Below are positions 3,718-62,156 of a stretch of 64,000 bases of DNA, one piece after another (positions within the stretch are counted from its first letter, which is position 1; each line of letters opens with the position of its first letter). The notes beneath the pieces were generated by a model that saw nothing but the letters and a program-made list of their open reading frames with translations, had not been told where the DNA came from and ran no database searches. This DNA is from an uncultured Candidatus Saccharibacteria bacterium (GTDB lineage: Bacteria; Patescibacteriota; Saccharimonadia; Saccharimonadales; UBA4665): contig CAZCMS010000001.1 in NCBI GenBank assembly GCA_964499935.1, forward strand, positions 674,452 to 738,451, written 5' to 3'. The position numbers and the translations under genes were made by a program.

Positions 3718-4890
3718 CTATTCTCTATCTTGCAACGCCGAAGCATAGACCGTTAGGATTTTTTCTCCGACAATAGGAGTATCGTATTGCTGTACATGTT
3801 CGCGCTGCGCTCTTCGCGCAGACATACGCAAATCGGGATTATTTACATGCTTTGCAATCAGGTAGGCAAATTCTTTGGTATTCTGTGGGTTAATAAGTTG
3901 GTCTTCCATACTATCCATTACTGTTCGATACCCAGGATTATCGCCAGCTATCACGGTACCTCGGCTGGCTGCCATTGCCTCCAATAAACTAATGCCAAAA
4001 CTTTCGCCACCCAGGCTAGGGAAAACTGCAATATCTGCTTTGTACAAAAATTCTACCTTGTCGGATTCTGCAACAAATCCAGTAAAGGCAACGTATTCTT
4101 CGAGCGCAGATGCGCGCACAAACTGCTCTAACTCAGTTCGCAATACACCTTTTCCGCCAATAGTAACGTGAAATACCTCATGCGCGAGGTTATGATCAAC
4201 CATATATTTAATTGCCTGCAAGAGCTGCATACCGCCTTTGCGTCCTACAAGACGACCAAGAAATACAATTTCTACCTTAGAATTTGCACTCGATTTTAAC
4301 GGTGTTAAAAATCGAGGTACGTCAATCATATTAGGTATGATTTGCGAGTCCACCTTATACGAGCTTTTCATAAATTTTTGGGCAGCAGACGAAACACTGA
4401 TCATCGCATCAAAACGCTTTAGCTGCCGTCGTACCCAAGCGCCTAATACATGTGTCGCGTAATGCACTAATTTTGTTTCTGGAAAAATATGAAACGTACC
4501 TACAACGGCCGTATTTTTACTGGCACGATTAATAATTCTTCCGGCCAAAAAAGGGCTATACGGCATCTGTATATGCAATATATCAAAGTTAGTCTTTTTT
4601 AAGAGTCGTGAAATTAATCTTGTATTACCTGGAAGGGGTGTGCCTCCGCTGTTACCGTTAAATCTAGTTTTTATTTTTTTGCTTAGCGAATGGACATTAT
4701 CAATTCCAATATCTTTTGTTGCACTTGTCAGATAGTGCACTTCGTGTCCTTGTCCCGTCAGCCAAGCGCCAAGTGTTTTTACGTATTGCTGCACGCCATC
4801 AGGCTTGTCTAGCGAATCATCTATCACTAAGCCTATAGTAAGTAACTTACGCTCTGTGCTCTTTGATTGCGTCAAGATATACTGCTTCAT
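3718..4890 (-). CDS. Glycosyltransferase family 4
   Basis: 390 aa with GT-B fold pattern and the conserved GT4 motif FPSLGGESFGISLLEAMA. Confidence 0.8.
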   Translation of the reverse strand: MKQYILTQSKSTERKLLTIGLVIDDSLDKPDGVQQYVKTLGAWLTGQGHEVHYLTSATKDIGIDNVHSLSKKIKTRFNGNSGGTPLPGNTRLISRLLKKTNFDILHIQMPYSPFLAGRIINRASKNTAVVGTFHIFPETKLVHYATHVLGAWVRRQLKRFDAMISVSSAAQKFMKSSYKVDSQIIPNMIDVPRFLTPLKSSANSKVEIVFLGRLVGRKGGMQLLQAIKYMVDHNLAHEVFHVTIGGKGVLRTELEQFVRASALEEYVAFTGFVAESDKVEFLYKADIAVFPSLGGESFGISLLEAMAASRGTVIAGDNPGYRTVMDSMEDQLINPQNTKEFAYLIAKHVNNPDLRMSARRAQREHVQQYDTPIVGEKILTVYASALQDRE

Positions 4891-5971
4891 ATTGTTTTAC
4901 AACGTTCGGGTAATCATACTGCTGAACATTTGCTTTTGCCCAAGCACACCATAAATCACGTAGGTCTCTTTCATTCAAGAGTAGGCCTAATCTATGGGCT
5001 AAATCATCAACTCGTTTTGGATTCACCAAAGAAATTGCACCGAGGCCTTTCATGACCGAAGCATAACCGGGGTTATTGCCAGCTACCGTCACTAGCCCAG
5101 AAGCCATTGCCTCTAGTAGTACAATGCCAAAACTTTCGCCATAAATTGCAGGGGCACAGAATAAGTCAGAAGTTTTTAATAATTCTTTCTTTTTTGATTC
5201 GGTAACATATCCCAAGAAAGTCACTTTATCATCAATACCAAGTTCAGTACTCATTGCTTCTAGTTTTTGGCGATCAACACCATCTCCAGCAATTGTCAAA
5301 ATAACATTTGGATCTTTTTCTGCTAATATTTTAAATGCCTTTAGAAGATAGGGTAGTCCTTTACGCTTTTCTAGTCGTCCAACATAAAAAATAGTCTTTT
5401 TCTTGCGTTCAGTGCGCTTTCGAGGAGCATGGAAATTATTTAAATCAATACCGTTAGGAACAATAGTTACCGGCGAGTCTGTCATTGTTCGTAAATATTC
5501 TGTTGCTGCCTCACTAACTGCCGTAAATTTATGCAAATATTTTAGAACAGACTTAGTATACGGTGTTACTACCTTGGCAAATGTACGGCTCACCATAGTC
5601 TCGGGGAGTTTTGCATGAAACGTTGCAACATTCGCACATGTCGAACGGCTCAAAATCTGACGACTTAGTATAGGAATCCACGGCTCATGAAAGTGCAGTA
5701 CGTCAAAATTTTCTTCTTCCAGCATTGCATCTATCTCGGCTCCGTTGACACTACCACCGATCTGCGAAGTAGTGTGAGTAGGGGACTTAAAATCTGCTGA
5801 AGTACCAAGATAAATTGTATTCTTGAAGCTTCTGTTTGTGCCTCGCATCTTAGGGGTAATGATCTTAACATCATGACCCAGATCAATCAGTCCAGCCTGT
5901 AACGCTTTTATACATTCCTGAACACCACCGCCCTTGTTTATATCATACGGGCATACTATACCGATTTTCAT
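4847..5971 (-). CDS. Glycosyltransferase family 4 (PimA-like)
   Basis: 374 aa. N-terminus MKIGIVCPY..GGVQ and motif GESFGIVLLEAMASG. Overlaps the downstream GT4 gene, suggesting an operon. Confidence 0.8.
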   Translation of the reverse strand: MKIGIVCPYDINKGGGVQECIKALQAGLIDLGHDVKIITPKMRGTNRSFKNTIYLGTSADFKSPTHTTSQIGGSVNGAEIDAMLEEENFDVLHFHEPWIPILSRQILSRSTCANVATFHAKLPETMVSRTFAKVVTPYTKSVLKYLHKFTAVSEAATEYLRTMTDSPVTIVPNGIDLNNFHAPRKRTERKKKTIFYVGRLEKRKGLPYLLKAFKILAEKDPNVILTIAGDGVDRQKLEAMSTELGIDDKVTFLGYVTESKKKELLKTSDLFCAPAIYGESFGIVLLEAMASGLVTVAGNNPGYASVMKGLGAISLVNPKRVDDLAHRLGLLLNERDLRDLWCAWAKANVQQYDYPNVVKQYEAVYLDAIKEHRA

Positions 5972-6006
5972 AATTACCTCCTAGTATACCATCCAAATAT
6001 ACATAT

Positions 6007-6939
6007 TTACTTTGGCTTTCTGGCAAGTTCACGTTTTAACTTCGGTGGAATCATAACAGACATGTCTTTTTTATCGCCCAAAATACTCGGGGTATGAGCG
6101 TGGGAATTCATTACTACTTGCGTGTAATCACTGAACACGACACGCATATGCTGCTCGACATTATAGTTATTGAAATAATGATCGTTACTCGCAGCAACAT
6201 GCCATACAGGAAGATCTATCTTGGTCCGGCAATTATCGAGGTCAAGAAATTCACTGGTAGTTGCCCAGTGGGTGCGAACATCGTTCGATTGCCATAGCTT
6301 TACTTCAAACTTCATCATTGCGTCGAAATCTGTAGTTTCCATACCCTCGATACGTTTCTTGCCGGCAGGCAAGCGCACATAGATATTCTTTATTACAAAC
6401 GAGTTAAGTCCTATATACCGAATAAGCCACGGTACAGGTCGGGCTGCGAATACACGAGTTGCCTTTACGAAGAATTTGCGCTGTCGTGGAGAGAACAAAA
6501 AGTCGTCCCGATGCATAAATCCAACAATACTAACCAGCAAATCCACTTTTTTAGCAAGCTCAGGATTGCGCTGTAACATACGTGTTGCAACAATAAAGCC
6601 ATACGAAATACCGACAATAGTAATGCGTCTACGCTTGTATTTCATCTTAACAAACGCAGCTAGATAGTCGGCCATGTCGTCCAGCGTGGGTTTTCGGCCA
6701 ATCTTGTACATGCTGTCCATGCCACCAAATCCAGGTAGATCGACCATGGTGACAGCACCGTAATCGTTAAGATTTTCTACTAACCCAAACCAGCGCTCCA
6801 ATAAAGCATGGTGCCCGTATACCAAAAGAATCTCGCGCTTTTTATTTTTGGGAGCAGGTACCCTTAACATACGTCCACGCATGCCATGAATATTGACATC
6901 CGCTACATAGTCAGCAAGATCTTGTTGTTTTTTACCCAT
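6007..6939 (-). CDS. Alpha/beta hydrolase
   Basis: 310 aa with a nucleophile elbow GISYG and alpha/beta-hydrolase-like spacing. Confidence 0.6.
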   Translation of the reverse strand: MGKKQQDLADYVADVNIHGMRGRMLRVPAPKNKKREILLVYGHHALLERWFGLVENLNDYGAVTMVDLPGFGGMDSMYKIGRKPTLDDMADYLAAFVKMKYKRRRITIVGISYGFIVATRMLQRNPELAKKVDLLVSIVGFMHRDDFLFSPRQRKFFVKATRVFAARPVPWLIRYIGLNSFVIKNIYVRLPAGKKRIEGMETTDFDAMMKFEVKLWQSNDVRTHWATTSEFLDLDNCRTKIDLPVWHVAASNDHYFNNYNVEQHMRVVFSDYTQVVMNSHAHTPSILGDKKDMSVMIPPKLKRELARKPK

Positions 6940-30680: not shown

Positions 30681-30702
30681 ATTACGTCTATCGGTTTTCC
30701 AT

Positions 30703-30759
30703 TGCAGTTTCGTCGTTTACGACTCGTCAGTATAGCTTATATGTAATCTATAGACTGCT
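30703..30759 (-). ncRNA. Type III hammerhead ribozyme (copy 4, divergent helices)
   Basis: The minus strand reads GCAGU-C/UAUAG-12 nt-CUAUA/CUGACGA/GUCG-UAAA-CGAC/GAA/ACUGC. All core positions, G10.1-C11.1, A15.1-U16.1 and a GUC cleavage triplet are present. Confidence 0.8.
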
Positions 30760-30903
30760 AGGGAAGGGGTGTGATAGCCAAAAGGCTATTGATTCACACT
30801 CCCTCCCGGAGTTTTACTGGTTAACTCCACCAGAATCGATTTGCACGAATCGTGCCACCCTTCGATTAAAAGGTGTTACCTGAATTGACCGTAAACGATC
30901 AGA

Positions 30904-31146
30904 TCAGCCGTTCATCACCTTGGTGGTGACTTGAACAACCGAGTTGGGTTCGAGAACCTCATCCAGCTGGGCCTCACGACCGTTCACCTGGACCATCAGA
31001 CCTTGCTTGACCCTAACGTTCGCACAAGCGAGCGCATTAGCAACGGTCATGTCAGACGCATAGTCCAACTGATGGAGATCACCACCGAGCACAGCAACCT
31101 GCACCCAGCTCGGAGCTTCCTCGGCCACAACGATATCCGTAGACAT
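30904..31146 (-). CDS. Ubiquitin-like beta-grasp protein (ThiS/MoaD-like), C-terminal Gly
   Basis: 80 aa. VQVNGREAQLDEVLEPNSVVQV resembles ThiS/MoaD. Ends KVMNG-stop. GAGGAG RBS. Last gene of the E2-JAB-E1 operon. Confidence 0.65.
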   Translation of the reverse strand: MSTDIVVAEEAPSWVQVAVLGGDLHQLDYASDMTVANALACANVRVKQGLMVQVNGREAQLDEVLEPNSVVQVTTKVMNG

Positions 31147-31173
31147 ATCTACTTCACTACTCCTCTGTATTGA

Positions 31174-31842
31174 TCAGCGACTGAACAATTGTGCTTCTCG
31201 CACATGTACATCGATGTACGACTTGAGCTCCATATCTCGCGCAAATCGTGTCAACTGAGCAATCATGTGCCCAGCCAATACTACCGGCGGATGGATCACG
31301 GTACGCGCTGCGCACGGCAAAGGCGCACCCTCTCCATCAGGAAAAAGCCAATCCTTCTCGTAGGTGTCCACCGCATCCATATCCAGAGGGTTCAGCGCAA
31401 GCAATGTCATTTGCTCGCCACCAATCCGACCGTCAAGGTACAAAGGAACATCCGGGTTGAACTTGACTGACCCCCAAATATCGCATCGAGCCTGCATACT
31501 GTCTACACCGCTGATGACAACACCGCTGAGCGGGGTTTCTGCTGTCACAAATTCCTGGTGTGGAACAATGCTGCACTCAGACTCTCTGTAAGACTCCAGC
31601 ATTTCTGCTGCAGCCTCCACCTTGGGCCTACCAACATCGGTGCGGGAATAGATCAACTGCGCTGGCACATTGTGCGGCTCCACATAGTCCAAGTCCCACA
31701 AATGCAGCTCGCCACGAAGGCCGAGCTTCACCAACGGGAGCACCACAGCGCTACCGATTCCGCCGACACCAATCACATGGACAGGCCAGGTGAACTTACT
31801 CGGGTCGAAGATATCCGTCTGACCAGAATAGTCAGCAATCAC
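31174..31842 (-). CDS. ThiF/MoeB-type E1-like adenylating enzyme
   Basis: Rossmann motif IGVGGIGS, plus DLDYVEPHN and GVDSMQAR motifs. GTG start 7 nt after the JAB stop and behind GAGGTGA; the longer track ORF overlaps the JAB gene. Confidence 0.8.
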   Translation of the reverse strand: MIADYSGQTDIFDPSKFTWPVHVIGVGGIGSAVVLPLVKLGLRGELHLWDLDYVEPHNVPAQLIYSRTDVGRPKVEAAAEMLESYRESECSIVPHQEFVTAETPLSGVVISGVDSMQARCDIWGSVKFNPDVPLYLDGRIGGEQMTLLALNPLDMDAVDTYEKDWLFPDGEGAPLPCAARTVIHPPVVLAGHMIAQLTRFARDMELKSYIDVHVREAQLFSR

Positions 31843-31849
31843 AATTACT

Positions 31850-32479
31850 TCACCTCTCGATCTGAAGATTCGTAGGGTCGTATGGTACCGCATCAGCTGA
31901 AGCGCGAGGCTCCAAAGGAACGGTACGAAGTCGCCCAAAAAAACCCATCCCCTGGCTACGCACCTTGAGACGAATCTCGTCGGCGGTGCTGTCAAGCAAG
32001 CCTTCGTCGAACACTGTCACAATCTCGGGTATCACATCAATCTCGACCCGAAAAGGCTCGAAAATGTCCAAGCGACAGCGAAACTCGCCACGCTTGTTGA
32101 CAACCAGACTGATCAGCCAATCTCCAGGCCAGCGCTCAATATTCGCCGTATCGGTAGGGGAGAAATAGGACTCCATATTGACATGACTATGCCACTGGAA
32201 CTTGATAGATCCAGGATTCCCCGTACCGCTCAGCACCATCTCGTGAATGAAATGGGTCAGTGCATCATGGTCCACCTCAGCGTGTCCGGGCGAAGCCACT
32301 TGGTCCAAAATGAACACATCCTTCACACGGATGATGTCATCACGCACCTCCACCAAGCCAAATCCGTTGATCTCGGTCGGGCAATTGATGACGTATGCCA
32401 TCATCTTCTGCCAATCCTGAAACGAAATCTGCACTCGGGGGATACGAATCACTGCGGGGCCTGCCAAATTGACCGACAT
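31850..32479 (-). CDS. JAB/MPN (JAMM) metallopeptidase
   Basis: 209 aa with upstream Glu (TEINGFG) and the full JAMM motif HSHVNMESYFSPTD (HxHx7SxxD). Confidence 0.85.
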   Translation of the reverse strand: MSVNLAGPAVIRIPRVQISFQDWQKMMAYVINCPTEINGFGLVEVRDDIIRVKDVFILDQVASPGHAEVDHDALTHFIHEMVLSGTGNPGSIKFQWHSHVNMESYFSPTDTANIERWPGDWLISLVVNKRGEFRCRLDIFEPFRVEIDVIPEIVTVFDEGLLDSTADEIRLKVRSQGMGFFGRLRTVPLEPRASADAVPYDPTNLQIER

Positions 32480-33925
32480 CTACTTCATCTCCTCTTTATA
32501 CACGTGGAATGCTTGCAAAACATCTTTCTGATGCTCGGGGTTAACCGAACATAGACATTCAACTATCAAAGCCATCGCCTCAACATACTGCGCCTTGGCA
32601 AGGTGTTCATTGACGACTCTCTCCCGATTACCAAAACAAAACGCTCCGGTAGAGAGTCGATATACCGGGTAGCCACCTCTCCAGCTGCTCTTCACACCTG
32701 ACCGTAGCTCTTTTGCCGTTACCGTCAAGGTGTCGGCGCCAAGATCTACCTGCCAATCACCCAGGTCGTACGCTACCCCACTGTATTCATTGATGGCTCG
32801 CACGATGAGACGGATGCGATTGTTCACAACCTGCACTGCCAAAACTCCAGGCAGAGACATGATGCGATCAAATTCACCTCCAATATTCATCTCGAACAGT
32901 TGCTCGTTGGTTTCTTCGATAGCTCGCTCCAGGATCTGCTGCTGACTCGTCAAGTCATTTATCTCACCTTGCTGGCTTTTAACTTGCTCAGCGAGTGATC
33001 GCAAGACCTCGCGACCCCGCTTTACTGCCAAAACAACTTGCTTATGAGCCTCGATTCGATTCTTTTGCGCACTTTCTTGTCGCATTTCTACGTATACTGC
33101 ACGAGCACTATTAGGCGAGCTGGCATACGTCCGACTCACAGCAGGCCGCACCTCCGACGTTGAGTCTCCTCCCCCAACCAGAACATCTACTGGATTATGT
33201 CCATAGAAGTCAGGGGGCACCCACTCATCAGGTGGCGTCCACTCATCCCTTGGCTGGTGTTGCACGTCTCTTGCGCCTGGCTCCATCCTGGCTTGAAGTG
33301 GAGGATCCCAGCGAAGCAATAGCCCGCTCACAATCATGCTCAACCACCAAAAGGGGCCAAACATAAGCGTGACAACAAAGGGCCACACGTATCGCCAGGG
33401 CAAATCTGCCAATCGATGCTGCTGCTGTTCGTCCCGAAGATCAACCATATAGGCTATCAACGTTACTAGGCTAAAGAGCAGCCACATAACCAACAGTCCT
33501 GGATCAAAATACACAGCCGTTATAAAAGGCTTGAGACTGCTTTTTGTAAGGCCTAGCTTTAGTGGCTCACCTGTCTTGGCGACTTGCTTCAGCTGCCTAA
33601 GTTCCTTGGAATCTGAATCGAAAGGCTCCTCCTTATTGAGCTTGGCACTCAAATCCTGAAGACTCAAGACTTGTGTTGCCATCTGCATGCGTTTGCCACG
33701 TGTTTCTTCACTGACATCTTTTACATGCTCTTTGTTAGAGAGCATGATTTGAGCCAGTTTTTGGTTATTTCCCACGTTGTGGTTGGTGACCAAAACAATA
33801 CCGCCAGCGATAGCGATAGCAATCACACTCAATACGAGCGCAGCAATAAACATCAACGCTATCGATTCTCCGATATTGCGATCGATGAAGGTACCAAATC
33901 GCAACGGTGTCTCACGACGCGTCAT
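32480..33925 (-). CDS. Membrane-anchored coiled-coil protein with putative E2 (UBC-like) C-terminal domain
   Basis: 481 aa with TM helices near residues 20-45, 145-165 and 180-205, a Pro/Trp-rich linker, and a heptad-like region. The C-terminus has a four-strand pattern, then YPVYRLSTGAFCFGN (resembling HPN-x-G-x-IC-L of E2s) and a helix. Its stop directly abuts the JAB start. Confidence 0.45.
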   Translation of the reverse strand: MTRRETPLRFGTFIDRNIGESIALMFIAALVLSVIAIAIAGGIVLVTNHNVGNNQKLAQIMLSNKEHVKDVSEETRGKRMQMATQVLSLQDLSAKLNKEEPFDSDSKELRQLKQVAKTGEPLKLGLTKSSLKPFITAVYFDPGLLVMWLLFSLVTLIAYMVDLRDEQQQHRLADLPWRYVWPFVVTLMFGPFWWLSMIVSGLLLRWDPPLQARMEPGARDVQHQPRDEWTPPDEWVPPDFYGHNPVDVLVGGGDSTSEVRPAVSRTYASSPNSARAVYVEMRQESAQKNRIEAHKQVVLAVKRGREVLRSLAEQVKSQQGEINDLTSQQQILERAIEETNEQLFEMNIGGEFDRIMSLPGVLAVQVVNNRIRLIVRAINEYSGVAYDLGDWQVDLGADTLTVTAKELRSGVKSSWRGGYPVYRLSTGAFCFGNRERVVNEHLAKAQYVEAMALIVECLCSVNPEHQKDVLQAFHVYKEEMK

Positions 33926-33944
33926 CAGAATTCTCCCTTGTATA

Positions 33945-33994
33945 GTTTACTTCCAGTTTCAAATCTCGCTAAAGGTCTAAAACTGGAAGTAAAC
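33945..33994. repeat. Perfect 15-bp inverted repeat (cassette A 5' hairpin)
   Basis: GTTTACTTCCAGTTT (33945-33959) and AAACTGGAAGTAAAC (33980-33994), about 20 nt upstream of the operon start codon. Confidence 0.8.
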
Positions 33995-34217
33995 CGCATA
34001 CACAATTCAGGTAAATTATTAAAATACAAAGACACAATATCAACCATAAAAGGTCAATCTTACTCCTTGAATCTTATATTTAAATATAAGCACAAAATAT
34101 ACATTTAGTCAATTAGGTCGTATGATGAAACTATTCACCAATAGACGCCTTGAAATAAAATATACATACATAGGTATTAACTTTGGATAAATTAAGATTT
34201 ATAGGATAATACAGTCA

Positions 34218-40864: not shown

Positions 40865-41251
40865 ATGCTGACAGTAGACAGACAGGAAACGGCAGAGGTA
40901 GCACATACGTGTGGCCTGACCGGTGACGCGAGTCTCATGATTCGCCTCGAGAGCGATGAGGTTCACAAGGAGCGACTGCAAGCTATGCTTCCGACGCTGC
41001 TGACCAAAGACGTTGCTCGACAGCTGAGTAGGGAAGTCTCGATCAATCGTCCTTGCGACCCGAGGAGGACGCCCAAAAATAGGAGTGGAGATCGATCAAT
41101 ATCGGTCAGTGTCGCTGGAGTTCAAGTCTCGCTACATATTGAAGTAACGACGCGGAAGCCTCAGGACTTCGAACCTTTCATTTGGGCAACGCGTGAGTTG
41201 TTGGTGCCGATTCTCGCGGGTCAGCTGACCGTATATAAGAAAATGCTCTAG
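40865..41251 (+). CDS. Hypothetical protein (GC-rich cassette B)
   Basis: 128-aa ORF with RBS AAGGAA 5 nt upstream. Higher G+C than the flanks. No recognisable family. Confidence 0.5.
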   Translation: MLTVDRQETAEVAHTCGLTGDASLMIRLESDEVHKERLQAMLPTLLTKDVARQLSREVSINRPCDPRRTPKNRSGDRSISVSVAGVQVSLHIEVTTRKPQDFEPFIWATRELLVPILAGQLTVYKKML

Positions 41252-41354: not shown

Positions 41355-41414
41355 TTTTCGCTCTACAAATTAAATAGTTGTACTGATGAGTCCTCAGGAG
41401 GACGAAAGCGAAAG
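41355..41414 (+). ncRNA. Type III hammerhead ribozyme (copy 1)
   Basis: UUUUCGCU-C/UACAA-9 nt-UUGUA/CUGAUGA/GUCC-UCAGGA-GGAC/GAA/AGCGAAAG. An 8-bp helix III, 5-bp helix I and 4-bp helix II, with every invariant core base present. Confidence 0.85.
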
Positions 41415-55737: not shown

Positions 55738-56205
55738 ATGCTGTCGTGTGATTGCCAGAAGGATAAGAGAGTTCACTACCCCAAGCCCAGTATGTGCGAC
55801 TCCCTGGCTCATGTCCTGTCAAAAGGTCACGTCATGGACGTGAAATACAGGAAGCGCATTGTATTGCTTCGTGGTAGCGAAGCCCCTTTTGCGGAGACCG
55901 TCGTCAACCTGAGTTATGCTGACGAGGGAATCTTCAAAGAACCCAGGTGGTATCTCGACCGTGACCCCAGCTTGACACCTGAAGGCGTGATCGCAGTTCG
56001 CGTGGAACGTGTTACAGAGATGAAGCTCTGCATTCCTTCTATGAGTAGGAATTTTGTAACGACCGTGCTGCCTGAGCCCAGTCGCGTATCACCTACGTTC
56101 TTCATCGATGGAACGTTGTGTCGCAATGGCGCTCGGCCTACCACCGTTCGAGATCGATACGGGAACGAGCACAAGTACGACCCCAAAAAGATGCGGGTCG
56201 TCTAG
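55738..56205 (+). CDS. Hypothetical protein (GC-rich cassette C)
   Basis: 155-aa ORF behind RBS AGGGGAAAG. GC-rich, with no recognisable family. Confidence 0.5.
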   Translation: MLSCDCQKDKRVHYPKPSMCDSLAHVLSKGHVMDVKYRKRIVLLRGSEAPFAETVVNLSYADEGIFKEPRWYLDRDPSLTPEGVIAVRVERVTEMKLCIPSMSRNFVTTVLPEPSRVSPTFFIDGTLCRNGARPTTVRDRYGNEHKYDPKKMRVV

Positions 56206-56341: not shown

Positions 56342-56399
56342 TTTCGCTCTGCAAATAAAAGAGTTGTACTGATGAGTCCTAGAGAGGACGAAAGCGATA
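56342..56399 (+). ncRNA. Type III hammerhead ribozyme (copy 2)
   Basis: UCGCU-C/UGCAA-9 nt-UUGUA/CUGAUGA/GUCC-UAGAGA-GGAC/GAA/AGCGA. Helix I has a G-U where copy 1 has A-U. Confidence 0.8.
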
Positions 56400-60292: not shown

Positions 60293-61156
60293 ATGTTGCG
60301 TCTGCGAGAATATTATTTATTAACCAAGCCTGGTATTATTCGTGGCAACCTTATGACCGCTGCTGCTGGGTTCTTTTTTGCTAGCCAAGGAAACTTTGAT
60401 TGGTGGCTAGGCGCAGCGGTCTTATCAGGAACTGCGCTCGTCATTGCATCGGGGTGTGTTTTCAATAACTACCTTGATCGTGGTATTGACAAAAAAATGG
60501 CACGCACCCAGGGTAGAGTGCTCGTAACAGGTGCTATCTCTGCAAAAGCTGCGCTAACATTTGCCACAACTTTAGCCACTATCGGATTCGTAATATTGGC
60601 ACTGTACACAAATTACCTTACTGTTTTTATAGGCATAGTTGGGATTGTAGATTACGTTATTTTATATGGCTACGCCAAGCGCCACTCTGTCCACAGTACA
60701 CTCATTGGCGGAGTTTCTGGGTCTACAGCGCTGGTGGCAGGATATGTTGCTGTTACAGGCAGTCTTGATGTCGTAGCGCTGTTACTGTTTCTAATCATGG
60801 CGTTTTGGCAGATGCCACATTTTTATGCGATTGGCGTGTATCGAAAAAAAGATTACACTGCAGCCGGCTTACCTATTTTACCTGTAAAAAAGGGTGTTCT
60901 AGATACTAAAAGACAAACGCTTGTCTATATTATCGGCTACATTATCACTGCTGGTCTGCTTGGTGTATTGGGCTATACCGGCTATACATATCTTCTCATC
61001 ATGACCGCACTTGGGCTGTGGTGGCTTATTGTCGCACTGCAAGGATTCAAGCCTAAAACCGATGACATAAAGTGGGGTCATAAGATATTTGGTATATCGC
61101 TTTTGATACTTATGGCGTTCTCTTTGCTGATTTCACTCGATTGGCTGCTGCCATAA
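60293..61156 (+). CDS. cyoE: Protoheme IX farnesyltransferase (heme O synthase)
   Basis: 287 aa UbiA-family protein. Motifs NNYLDRGIDKKMARTQGR and WQMPHF. Confidence 0.9.
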   Translation: MLRLREYYLLTKPGIIRGNLMTAAAGFFFASQGNFDWWLGAAVLSGTALVIASGCVFNNYLDRGIDKKMARTQGRVLVTGAISAKAALTFATTLATIGFVILALYTNYLTVFIGIVGIVDYVILYGYAKRHSVHSTLIGGVSGSTALVAGYVAVTGSLDVVALLLFLIMAFWQMPHFYAIGVYRKKDYTAAGLPILPVKKGVLDTKRQTLVYIIGYIITAGLLGVLGYTGYTYLLIMTALGLWWLIVALQGFKPKTDDIKWGHKIFGISLLILMAFSLLISLDWLLP

Positions 61157-61168
61157 TAGTCTTGTTTT

Positions 61169-61225
61169 TTTCGCTTTCGTCCTCTCTAGGACTCATCAGT
61201 ACAACTAAATATTTGTAGAGCGAAT
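61169..61225 (-). ncRNA. Type III hammerhead ribozyme (copy 3)
   Basis: The minus strand reads AUUCGCU-C/UACAA-8 nt-UUGUA/CUGAUGA/GUCC-UAGAGA-GGAC/GAA/AGCGAA. It lies 13 nt from the cyoE stop on the opposite strand. Confidence 0.85.
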
Positions 61226-61243
61226 ATGACAAACAGACAAAAG

Positions 61244-61263
61244 AAAAACACACGGAAACCGTG
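61244..61263 (-). terminator. Rho-independent terminator-like hairpin
   Basis: Minus strand CACGG-TTT-CCGTG followed by TGTTTTT, downstream of the 61323-62078 gene. Confidence 0.5.
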
Positions 61264-61322
61264 CGAATTAGAGAAAGCCTAGCGTCATACTCGCAGTAAC
61301 GCATATTGCTAAACCCAAAGAG

Positions 61323-62078
61323 TCAGCGAACCGTGTATAGATAGGGCTGTACGCTATAAGGCGTCGTAACGATAGCTTCGCTATCGTTCCAGCCAACATA
61401 TTGCCTCAGTGCGCTCATCACCGTATCGTGATGTGCGATTCGATCGTGCTCTCGATTAGCGACAATCCACACGTCGCGACCAGAGATCCTCACAGAACGG
61501 ATAGCCCCTGTGTCCGCCAAAAGCAAGCGCAAGCGCACCCACCCAAGACCACCGGCCTCGTACTGCACATTCGGCGCAATCTCCGAAGCCATGTCGGGGC
61601 CGAGCTCCAGGGAAAACCGGTACTGTCTCGTGTAACCCGAGAACAACGAACCAGGGTAGTCGACCCAGCTGATACTCCGAGCGACCTCAGAGACCTCTGC
61701 CTTCGTATAACAGTACGACTGTGTCGGTTGCTGTGGCAGTCGATCCATAATCAAGAGCGCGTTGACGCGATCAGCGATCGCACGAAGATACTCAAGTGCT
61801 TCTTCGCACTCGAATACATCGTTCGCAATCGTTACGCGGAGCGCTTGTGCGTTGACTTCGATCGTGTCGACGTGAGCAAGCTCCTTGAAGAGCATACGAA
61901 CAAACATCAACGGCTGGCGATCCATGAGAGCCATATGAGCCGGATCCTGCATATCGACACGCCGAATCTTACACGGCGTACTGTCGGGCGGAAAAATTCC
62001 CTGAGGAACGAAAAAACTCACCTCATTTCTGGCAATCTCGATCAGAATCTTCACGGTATTATTGGTCATAACAGACAT
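61323..62078 (-). CDS. Hypothetical protein (GC-rich cassette D)
   Basis: ORF with start set at the internal ATG (MSVMTNN) behind GGAGAAAG. GC-rich, with no recognisable family. Confidence 0.5.
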   Translation of the reverse strand: MSVMTNNTVKILIEIARNEVSFFVPQGIFPPDSTPCKIRRVDMQDPAHMALMDRQPLMFVRMLFKELAHVDTIEVNAQALRVTIANDVFECEEALEYLRAIADRVNALLIMDRLPQQPTQSYCYTKAEVSEVARSISWVDYPGSLFSGYTRQYRFSLELGPDMASEIAPNVQYEAGGLGWVRLRLLLADTGAIRSVRISGRDVWIVANREHDRIAHHDTVMSALRQYVGWNDSEAIVTTPYSVQPYLYTVR

Positions 62079-62156
62079 ACTGTTCTTTCTCCAAACCTGT
62101 GGCACAATACCCTCCTACAACTGTAGGAGCTGTGTTTTTCTGTAACACATCACAAG

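Follow-up and report, generated by a model that had tools for sequence, protein, structure and literature searches.

We identified a four-gene operon in a 64,000-nucleotide stretch of DNA from an uncultured Candidatus Saccharibacteria bacterium (contig CAZCMS010000001.1, positions 674,452 to 738,451; the whole stretch is called the window below). We class this cassette as a further ubiquitination-like lineage, common to Saccharibacteria and large phage-like contigs, with a Saccharibacteria branch in which the conjugating (E2) protein is membrane-anchored. The cassette probably constitutes a self-contained cascade for conjugation of a ubiquitin-like protein (Ubl) that is encoded in a single transcription unit, holds its E2 at the membrane, and plays a role in conflict.

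The operon consists of four tightly coupled, co-directional open reading frames (ORFs) on the minus strand. All were found in the ORF listing with the spacings and starts given by the original prediction, which was made from the letters of the window. The first gene (32480-33925) encodes a membrane and coiled-coil protein of 481 amino acids, here referred to as E2L. Its TAG stop codon abuts the ATG of the second gene (31850-32479), which encodes a JAMM peptidase of 209 amino acids (JAB). The third gene (31174-31842) encodes an activating (E1) protein of 222 amino acids that starts from a GTG at 31842, 7 nucleotides (nt) past the JAB stop. This start is backed by seven homologues with N-termini at the same position; a longer E1 ORF from a TTG at 31995 is an artefact of the mechanical ORF listing. 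The fourth gene (30904-31146) follows a 27-nt spacer containing GAGGAG and encodes an 80-amino acid Ubl ending in KVMNG immediately before the stop codon. The sequence motifs reported for JAB, for E1 (GVGGIGS) and for E2L (FCFG) are present and are kept in homologues. The GC-rich island on which the operon was said to lie is also real, as G+C is 0.47-0.58 in the block 30800-33600 and falls to 0.26-0.41 in the intergenic and flanking DNA next to it. Over most of the window, G+C is about 0.43.

The C-terminal domain of E2L (residues 341-481; 32483-32905, minus strand) carries the motif W..YPvYR...G.FCFG.R. The cysteine of FCFG, Cys430 (codon 32636-32638), occupies the one column that never varies in alignments of 135, 149 and 93 homologues. 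An AlphaFold2 model of the domain alone (predicted local distance difference test score (pLDDT) 94.3; predicted template modelling score 0.87) contains a helix (domain residues 3-19), four strands (24-30, 33-44, 47-58 and 67-72), a Cys-bearing loop, and three further helices (97-106, 110-121 and 126-135), which is the order of elements in the UBC topology. When this model is compared with the PDB using Foldseek, nine of the top 12 matches are E2 or RWD proteins (TM 0.27-0.42). The leading matches are UbcH7, UbcH8, a Plasmodium E2 and UbcH5b, together with RWD, UEV and Fts folds.

The assignment of this domain rests on a transitive link through the viral homologues described below; the window protein alone gives weak direct evidence. 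A direct hhalign comparison between the window-family domain and four human E2s is co-linear, and places YPxY on HPN and Cys430 on the catalytic Cys. The Saccharibacteria domain aligns with the viral E2-like domain over 131 columns (99.1%, E 5e-19), and the viral domain aligns in turn with the four human E2s (94.9%, E 4e-8). The score of the latter comparison is 51.3, while 100 column shuffles gave a mean of 11.4 and a maximum of 18.4. In the viral-human alignment the viral HPH is paired with HPN, its Cys with the catalytic Cys, and YNPxDxY with PNPxDPL. A combined Saccharibacteria and viral profile also matches the human E2s (70.7%, E 4e-5). The human profile consists of four sequences whose mutual alignment is as expected. 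With Pfam models, one viral E2L scores 14.5 bits against UQ_con (cut-off 27) on the HPN-Cys segment, and one member of the Saccharibacteria family matches Knl1_RWD_C; a search with 93 family members gave no match at E≤1 to UQ_con or Prok-E2_A to E, the only returns being coiled-coil noise. Based on these alignments and the structural model, we place the C-terminal domain in the UBC superfamily as a divergent member, Cys430 being the equivalent of the catalytic site. The E2-like C-terminus of the original prediction is thus borne out by the topology of the model, the E2, RWD and UEV folds in the Foldseek ranking, and the hhalign path through the viral homologues.

The other three proteins have more readily recognized relatives. 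The zinc site of the JAMM peptidase, a glutamate plus HSHx7SxxD in the original prediction, is intact (E36, H97-S-H99-x7-S107-xx-D110) and invariant in eight homologues. The family profile matches Pyrococcus furiosus JAMM1 best among solved structures (5ld9/5lda_A, E 5e-7), followed by Rpn11 (1e-4), and the match to Pfam Prok-JAB is 22.3 bits, just under the cut-off of 25. On these grounds the peptidase is a candidate for both processing and deconjugation of the Ubl.

The E1 is minimal, as had been noted: it is a single-domain ThiF-type protein (Pfam ThiF, 66 bits; cut-off 28.1). Its profile finds the active adenylation domain of UBA3 first in the PDB (3e-14), then those of UBA7 and UBA1, which are likewise canonical E1s of Ubls, and after them ThiF (9e-12) and MoeB (4e-6); its adenylation core aligns with UBA3. 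Eleven nucleotide-binding and catalytic residues (G25, G27, G30, D50, D52, N58, Q62, K74, D114, R119 and R139) are invariant across eight E1s from the candidate phyla radiation (CPR) and 30 viral E1s. In addition, Cys177, within LPCAART, is kept in all eight Saccharibacteria proteins and 29 of the 30 viral ones, and is aligned with a Cys of the ThiF protein of a crAss-like phage. The E1 matches phrog_15670, a PHROG annotated 'unknown function', over its full length.

The 80-residue protein is a beta-grasp protein, as proposed. Its profile matches P. furiosus SAMP2/PF1061 over 65 residues (1rws, 8e-5; 5lda_B, 1e-4). The C-terminal Asn-Gly is invariant, and two of eight homologues have one or two residues past the Gly. 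The sequence is that expected of a Ubl modifier with an exposed or exposable C-terminal Gly.

A minimal ThiF-type E1 that also matches ThiF and MoeB models in NCBIfam could belong to a sulfur-carrier system of the ThiS/MoaD/TtuB type. In that case the E1 would adenylate the Ubl for formation of a thiocarboxylate, and the sulfur would be passed to a cofactor or a tRNA base. The Ubl relatives SAMP2 and MoaD also carry sulfur, and a conserved Cys is found in both the E1 and E2L. We regard this explanation as very improbable. The E1 scores far below the cut-offs of all the NCBIfam ThiF, MoeB and UbaA models (for example 50 bits against 275), the Ubl tail is NG and not GG, and the cassette contains no rhodanese domain, cysteine desulfurase, ThiG/ThiH, MoaE or TtuA/NcsA. 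A JAMM peptidase and a UBC-fold Cys protein as obligate partners would be left unexplained, and biosynthetic housekeeping fits poorly with a cassette that is patchily distributed, has an anomalous GC content, occurs in tandem and has relatives in phages. Placement of the Ubl and E1 in sulfur-carrier biosynthesis, with no E2 fold in E2L, had been named as the outcome that would overturn the original prediction. Instead, an E2 fold is present and the E1 is nearer to the E1s of Ubls.

E2L belongs to a large family that is not represented in the libraries searched. A word-indexed search found 14 homologues, a repeat search with alignment gave the same 14, and an exhaustive profile search gave 575 representative clusters at E≤1e-3, 195 of them at E≤1e-30. 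E2L matches no family in Pfam, NCBIfam, PADLOC, PHROGs or the PDB sequences, and phmmer and hmmsearch searches of the PDB with E2L or its family returned only coiled-coil noise. The AlphaFold2 model of the full-length protein, built with a 135-sequence alignment (mean pLDDT 86.4), consists from N- to C-terminus of a helical membrane region, a disordered linker, two long helices, and the compact C-terminal domain. A Foldseek search with this full-length model gave no useful match.

The N-terminal membrane module (residues 1-204; 33314-33925, minus strand; pLDDT 88-97) was delimited from hydropathy and charge over the 135 homologues. It contains three conserved hydrophobic helices at residues of approximately 17-52, 134-164 and 184-204. 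The N-terminal tail carries a net positive charge, and an acidic helical loop of approximately 85 residues lies between segments 1 and 2. Segment 3 has the lowest hydrophobicity and is interrupted at a conserved Gly-Pro; D174, in an ADLPW motif, is nearly invariant. The linker that follows (residues 221-263) is rich in Pro, Asp, Glu and Trp and has a pLDDT below 50, indicating disorder. It leads into a coiled-coil stalk (residues 269-340; 32906-33121, minus strand) that is modelled as helices 271-311 and 315-339 and whose sequence matches only coiled-coil proteins. From the sequence we infer a topology with the N-terminus inside and the helical loop extracytoplasmic. Since an E2 relies on a cytoplasmic, ATP-using E1 it must itself be cytoplasmic, and segment 3 is thus predicted to be re-entrant or interfacial rather than to cross the membrane. 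The membrane module is specific to the Saccharibacteria proteins and is absent from the viral E2L proteins. To our knowledge, no other bacterial E2 combines a membrane anchor with a coiled coil. A soluble subfamily of E2L (P0105, P0117, P0134, P0140 and P0152) has no hydrophobic segment and contains two tandem E2-like domains. In these proteins the first domain keeps YPVYR...FCFG while the second has lost the Cys motif, an arrangement that recalls E2/UEV pairs.

The cascade might also operate without an E2. Sampylation, as carried out by the Haloferax SAMP/UbaA system, needs none, and the Ubl and JAMM peptidase are nearest to the P. furiosus SAMP2/JAMM1 pair. The E1 alone would then conjugate the SAMP2-like Ubl, the JAMM peptidase would reverse the reaction, and the 481-residue protein would be a substrate, scaffold or regulator. 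The direct structural likeness of the window domain to E2s, which is below significance, is compatible with this. However, the single residue that is invariant across the E2L family is the Cys that aligns with the E2 catalytic Cys, and the viral homologues retain an HPH...C[LW]G[ND] motif that is close to canonical. E2L also accompanies the E1 without exception in all loci for which enough sequence is available, and the tandem-domain members lose the Cys motif in the second domain yet keep it in the first. Given these observations, we find an E2-independent system improbable and prefer a cascade in which E2L acts as the E2.

The order E2L-JAB-E1-UBL is kept in approximately 20 independent Saccharibacteria loci with differing neighbours. 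On the contigs that encode six E2L homologues the four genes recur in identical order, and the loci fetched through the E1 alone show this order wherever the sequence suffices. The neighbouring genes are unrelated between loci, and include those for SecA, tRNA synthetases, purine genes, a Band_7 protein and glycosyltransferases. Tandem cassettes occur at two loci (L009, 3387-6558 and 8001-10912; L019, 341-3005 and 4619-6739) as diverged copies; at L009 a gene for a 337-amino acid protein of unknown function lies between the two. A conserved unit with unrelated neighbours and tandem copies behaves as a mobile accessory module.

All named homologues come from Saccharibacteria or Saccharimonadales metagenome-assembled genomes (MAGs), and the window proteins are also found on an NCBI contig of 885,286 bp. 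Both findings fit the remark in the original prediction that the genome looks reduced. A contig labelled as a Candidatus Binatia MAG (L011, DATKKU010000009.1) contains a cassette at 4001-6926, and its identities to the window proteins and the spans of the matches are approximately those of two other loci, L007 and L015. The Binatia contig is probably mis-binned, with transfer a possible alternative.

Related cassettes are also found on contigs of the viral database IMG/VR, some as long as 193 kb. IMG/VR contains 30 relatives of the E1, and a domain hidden Markov model (HMM) scan of their neighbourhoods identified a JAB gene beside almost all of them, and E2L-like and Ubl genes beside many, often in the same order (loci L035-L064; for example L035, 1943-7003; L037, 4071-6865; L041, 3865-6657). 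The viral E2L proteins carry the motif HPH(I/V)...G..C[LW]G[ND] plus YNPxDxY. The viral Ubl proteins end in RGG, KGG or AG, with one to three extra residues in six of ten. These cassettes look like complete phage-encoded ubiquitination-like cascades, as judged from their motifs and gene content. They lie among genes for helicase, primase, SSB, SbcCD, ribonucleotide reductase, methyltransferase and ParB-like proteins. No capsid or terminase gene occurs within the 6-kb flanks of the viral cassettes, and their viral status therefore rests on the IMG/VR classification. The viral E2-like genes surfaced only in the HMM scan of E1 neighbourhoods: a pattern scan of IMG/VR with the E2L alignment gave no match, nor did a tblastn search of isolate phage genomes with the E2 domain, and Foldseek against viral predicted structures gave nothing interpretable. 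The anomalous G+C, the tandem copies and these relatives beside phage-type replication genes indicate that the cassette is horizontally mobile. It would share common ancestry with the cassettes on large phage-like contigs. We found no paper describing phage-encoded E1-E2-JAB cassettes in the open-access literature.

Adjacent metalloprotease and ThiF genes also occur in the crAss-like Bacteroides phage PhiCrAssBcn20 (L032, OQ221555.1, 1726-4076). The metalloprotease has a weak Prok-JAB match. The ThiF protein shares 32% identity with the window E1 across 188 residues, with the conserved Cys aligned, and its annotation as a 'thiamine biosynthesis protein' is probably misleading.

The operon is flanked by structured RNA elements on both sides. 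A stem-loop is found in the 5' untranslated region (UTR) of the E2L gene (33945-33994, minus strand), and includes the perfect 15-bp hairpin of the original prediction as its core. The structure has 22-nt arms that are 86% complementary and a 6-nt loop, with a minimum free energy of -32.2 kcal/mol (z -5.9). It ends 19 nt before the E2L start codon, just upstream of an AAGGGAG ribosome-binding site. A hairpin of similar size but unrelated sequence occupies the same position in 10 of the 11 homologous loci whose start is well defined. Upstream lies a candidate sigma-70-like promoter (34015-34043, minus strand; TTGATA, 17 nt, AATAAT) that matches the consensus at 10 of 12 positions and would start the transcript approximately 10 nt before the hairpin. 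Promoter-like sites in this region are not above shuffle expectation, and this site is a candidate only.

Downstream of the Ubl gene, the 3' UTR contains a GC-rich hairpin (30761-30807, minus strand) read from the sequence, with no T-run after it, and directly following it a type III hammerhead ribozyme (30702-30760, minus strand). The 3' UTR fold has a z of -5.7, and a scan of the DNA past the Ubl gene gave no intrinsic terminator. The Rfam model Hammerhead_3 matches the region with 44.4 bits (E 1e-7). The CUGACGA...GAAA core and all three stems are complete, and self-cleavage is predicted after C30753 (GCAGUC^U), with a non-G at the site. Analogous long hairpins precede the hammerhead in homologous loci. 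A strict descriptor identified hammerheads 100-170 nt past the Ubl stop codon in eight distinct cassettes, and relaxed inspection found variant or decayed copies in L005, L018, L024, L025 and L028. Between the cassette hammerheads all three stems differ in sequence yet remain paired, and the core is kept. The descriptor and a shuffle control were used in place of a covariance model since a MAFFT alignment of five hammerheads was out of register; the descriptor matches 15 times in 243 kb and not once in 20 shuffles.

The hammerhead beside the operon is therefore real, as predicted, but it is also part of a wider feature of these genomes. Three further type III hammerheads occur in the window, at 41355-41414(+), 56344-56397(+) and 61170-61224(-). 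Two have Rfam scores of 37.2 and 30.8 bits and the third was identified by the descriptor only. They lie 100-140 nt downstream of ORFs without a Pfam match (40865-41251(+), 55738-56205(+) and 61323-62105(-)), and share extended flanking similarity with each other though not with the cassette hammerhead. The 'upstream' hammerheads of L010 and L012 each follow a preceding gene and are part of its 3' end. Based on these locations, we suggest that hammerheads act as 3'-end elements in Saccharibacteria. They are enriched at the 3' ends of cassettes, where they occur in approximately 8 of 21 compared with 7 of approximately 174 other genes (odds ratio ~15, p ~2e-5, computed with approximate gene counts). 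None was found in 336 kb of viral loci. The solution at the 3' end varies between cassette lineages, as two loci (L007, 6061-6257; L015, 4950-5150) have a 3' UTR with a long hairpin and no recognisable hammerhead core, and L022 has a classical terminator with a T-run instead of a hammerhead.

We rejected the possibility that the hairpin and hammerhead are the ends of a transposon- or retrozyme-like element. There is no transposase, integrase or reverse transcriptase nearby, both elements lie inside transcribed UTRs, and the upstream hammerheads of L010 and L012 are accounted for by preceding genes. The open-access literature yielded no paper that connects hammerheads or Ubl systems to Saccharibacteria or the CPR.

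The gene set with its motifs, the assigned folds and homologies, the gene order kept between loci and the motifs in the RNA are results of the analysis, and from them we infer the chemical steps, membrane topology, targets and biological role that follow. The 80-residue Ubl already ends in what would be the reactive glycine, Gly80. In relatives with one to three extra residues the JAMM peptidase would expose this glycine, and the extensions on six of ten viral Ubl proteins support processing by the adjacent peptidase across the family. The E1 would bind ATP, adenylate the Ubl glycine, and probably accept the Ubl on Cys177 through a thioester. It is probably a homodimer, by analogy with ThiF and MoeB. 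The Ubl would then pass to Cys430 of the UBC-fold domain of E2L, which would be held at the inner face of the membrane by the N-terminal three-helix module and probably dimerises through the coiled coil. As no E3 is encoded, we propose that the E2 transfers the Ubl directly to lysines of proteins near the membrane, and the JAMM peptidase would remove the tag again. The mRNA would be bracketed by the 5' stem-loop, with a protective function, and the 3' hairpin, its 3' end probably being produced by self-cleavage of the hammerhead and not by an intrinsic terminator. Considering the horizontal mobility of the cassette and the ancestry that it shares with phage-like cassettes, its role would most likely lie in conflict with phages or other mobile elements at the cell envelope. 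A link to anti-phage defence is suggested only by analogy with Bil, Bub and CBASS.

Several observations weigh against this reading. The Foldseek matches of the C-terminal domain are not significant (E≥0.05, TM≤0.42), and the direct hhalign comparison with human E2s is marginal (P 0.058 in one run and, in another, 0.016 with 2 of 200 shuffles reaching the score). The dependence on viral intermediates noted above counts here as well. The HPN motif is not kept, and is replaced by YPxY(R) in the Saccharibacteria proteins and by HPH or GPH in the viral relatives. Known bacterial E2s likewise depart from HPN (PMC1779556). For the E1, no solved structure matches the C-terminal half in a way that places Cys177 on the crossover loop. 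If all three hydrophobic segments were true spans, the N-in orientation suggested by charge would place the E2 domain on the outer side of the membrane, separated from ATP and the E1. The hammerhead score of 44.4 bits falls below the Rfam gathering score of 48.5. Finally, neither the window nor the homologous loci contain visible defence genes or regulators beside the cassette, and a check against the defence catalogue PADLOC, advised with the original prediction, yielded matches to the generic E1 fold and no model that fits the cassette.

The location of the closest relatives of the whole cassette leaves a second explanation of its role alive. These relatives are on viral contigs among phage-type replication genes, while the Saccharibacteria copies lie among housekeeping genes and not in defence islands. 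The same chemistry could thus serve a mobile element as a phage-derived module that in phages would tag proteins of the host or the phage for takeover or counter-defence, with the chromosomal copies being remnants or domesticated for a benefit other than defence. In addition to the IMG/VR contigs of up to 193 kb and the lack of a defence neighbourhood, the full-length match of the E1 to phrog_15670 and the related JAB-ThiF pair in crAss-like phages favor this explanation. However, the Saccharibacteria copies are a large, diversified clade of their own (575 representatives), marked by a membrane module that is absent from the viral proteins, and they are flanked by housekeeping genes, with neither integrase nor phage genes in the vicinity. 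They also have a host-type 3' hammerhead, which is missing from the 336 kb of viral loci. Clade, neighbours and hammerhead together point to long residence and selection in cells. The viral status of the relatives is itself an IMG/VR call, made for contigs with no capsid or terminase gene within 6 kb. We therefore consider service to a mobile element rather unlikely, and favor a role of the cassette in conflict with phages or other mobile elements.

The genes adjacent to the cassette in the window are ordinary, namely a divergent gene for cardiolipin synthase and a convergent gene for a P-loop kinase-like protein. No CD-NTase or effector gene was found among the window ORFs and neighbours. A second GC-rich stretch in the window (61001-62000, 0.506 compared with ~0.43) overlaps the ORF 61323-62105(-), which has no Pfam match and a hammerhead downstream. 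This may be another acquired, hammerhead-terminated gene.

A broader proposal, which we offer tentatively and consider doubtful, is that the cassettes of large phages and Saccharibacteria represent a fourth, unnamed lineage of prokaryotic ubiquitination. Under this proposal the phage cassette would be a complete cascade of E1, E2, Ubl and deubiquitinase with near-eukaryotic features, namely an HPx...Cys E2 and an RGG Ubl that has a propeptide. In the Saccharibacteria, fusion of the E2 to a membrane module with an extracytoplasmic loop would have produced a signal-gated 'sensor E2', and hammerheads would make the 3' ends of these transcripts. Were this the case, the sensor E2 would tag envelope proteins, either incoming phage components or proteins at the interface between epibiont and host, and the hammerhead would be part of a wider, undescribed form of 3'-end processing in reduced genomes.

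Bacterial ubiquitination-like operon families that have been shown to conjugate proteins are type II CBASS, Bil and Bub. The cassette described here would add another family, assembled from proteins that are unnamed in Pfam, NCBIfam, PADLOC and PHROGs; recognition by these libraries is limited to the generic ThiF domain of the E1 and a PHROG without assigned function. It would also extend Ubl conjugation to the Patescibacteria (CPR), for which we found no report, and to large phage-like contigs, whose versions look nearer to eukaryotic ubiquitin chemistry than most bacterial ones do. A membrane-anchored E2 suggests that conjugation is confined to, or controlled from, the envelope. The combination of archaeal-type SAMP2/JAMM1 parts with a true E2 would bear on how E2-dependent cascades arose from E2-less ones. 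A separate lead is provided by the type III hammerheads that several Saccharibacteria genomes carry behind a stable hairpin, 100-170 nt past stop codons.

The original prediction likened the cassette to Bil, Bub and the CBASS proteins Cap2 and Cap3. The parts list is indeed shared with these systems, but the cassette does not show their defining features and is not a member of any of them. Bil operons encode a Ubl, an E2, a JAB/JAMM peptidase and an E1 as four separate genes without an E3, and the E2 is expected to choose the targets (PMC11601596). This parts list corresponds to row '6d' of Iyer, Burroughs and Aravind 2006 (PMC1779556). The window cassette has the same four separate genes and likewise encodes no E3. 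However, its E1 is a single domain of 222 residues, unlike the BilD architecture (PMC11601596), and the PADLOC BilD model matches only the Rossmann segment (residues 72-173) with 31 bits. PADLOC models do not match the Ubl, E2L or JAB, so none of them matches as BilA, BilB or BilC if the library includes these. The window E2 also differs from that of Bil in its membrane module and coiled coil, and the Ubl and JAMM peptidase are nearer to archaeal SAMP2 and JAMM1.

Bub (6E/DUF6527) and type II CBASS are also bacterial systems of E1, E2 and peptidase, and a JAB peptidase is found in CBASS and type I Bub. Bub uses serine oxyester catalysis, a DUF6527 serine protease (BubE), and fused Ubl-E2 or E2-E1 proteins (PMC11601596). 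In the window cassette, by contrast, the cysteines are invariant, there is no DUF6527 gene, and all four proteins are separate. In type II CBASS the Cap2 E2-E1 fusion conjugates a CD-NTase, for which the window cassette has no gene, and the PADLOC 'E1-E2' models match only residues 71-153 of the window E1.

The E1 falls into a broad group of short ThiF proteins of mobile elements that includes the PRTRC and phage JAB-ThiF systems, and ParB-like genes lie near some of the viral cassettes. However, the PRTRC_ThiF model gives 27 bits with the window E1 and 33-43 bits with the viral E1s, compared with a cut-off of 144.75. No NCBIfam model matches E2L, JAB or Ubl at E≤0.01, and hence none for PRTRC proteins A to E.

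The putative E2 domain resembles eukaryotic E2s in its arrangement of a helix, four strands, an active-site loop and three helices. Its Cys also lies approximately 8-10 residues past a Pro-containing motif, and an NPxD-like motif occurs in the following helices. It differs in that HPN is replaced by YPxY in Saccharibacteria and HPH in the viral proteins, in the lack of a Pfam match at gathering score, and in a post-Cys helix that begins just four residues downstream. The window domain is, moreover, fused to an anchor and a coiled coil.

The archaeal sampylation system (SAMP2, UbaA and JAMM1) differs from the window cassette in having no E2, where the latter has an obligate UBC-fold Cys partner. 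The window Ubl tail is NG rather than GG, the host is bacterial, and the window E1 scores 38 bits against the UbaA model (cut-off 450). However, the two systems share a small E1 of one domain and a beta-grasp tag that ends in Gly, and the solved structures nearest to the Ubl (1rws, 5lda_B) and to the peptidase (5ld9, 5lda_A) come from sampylation. The structural reference is 5LDA, the P. furiosus complex of JAMM1 with SAMP2.

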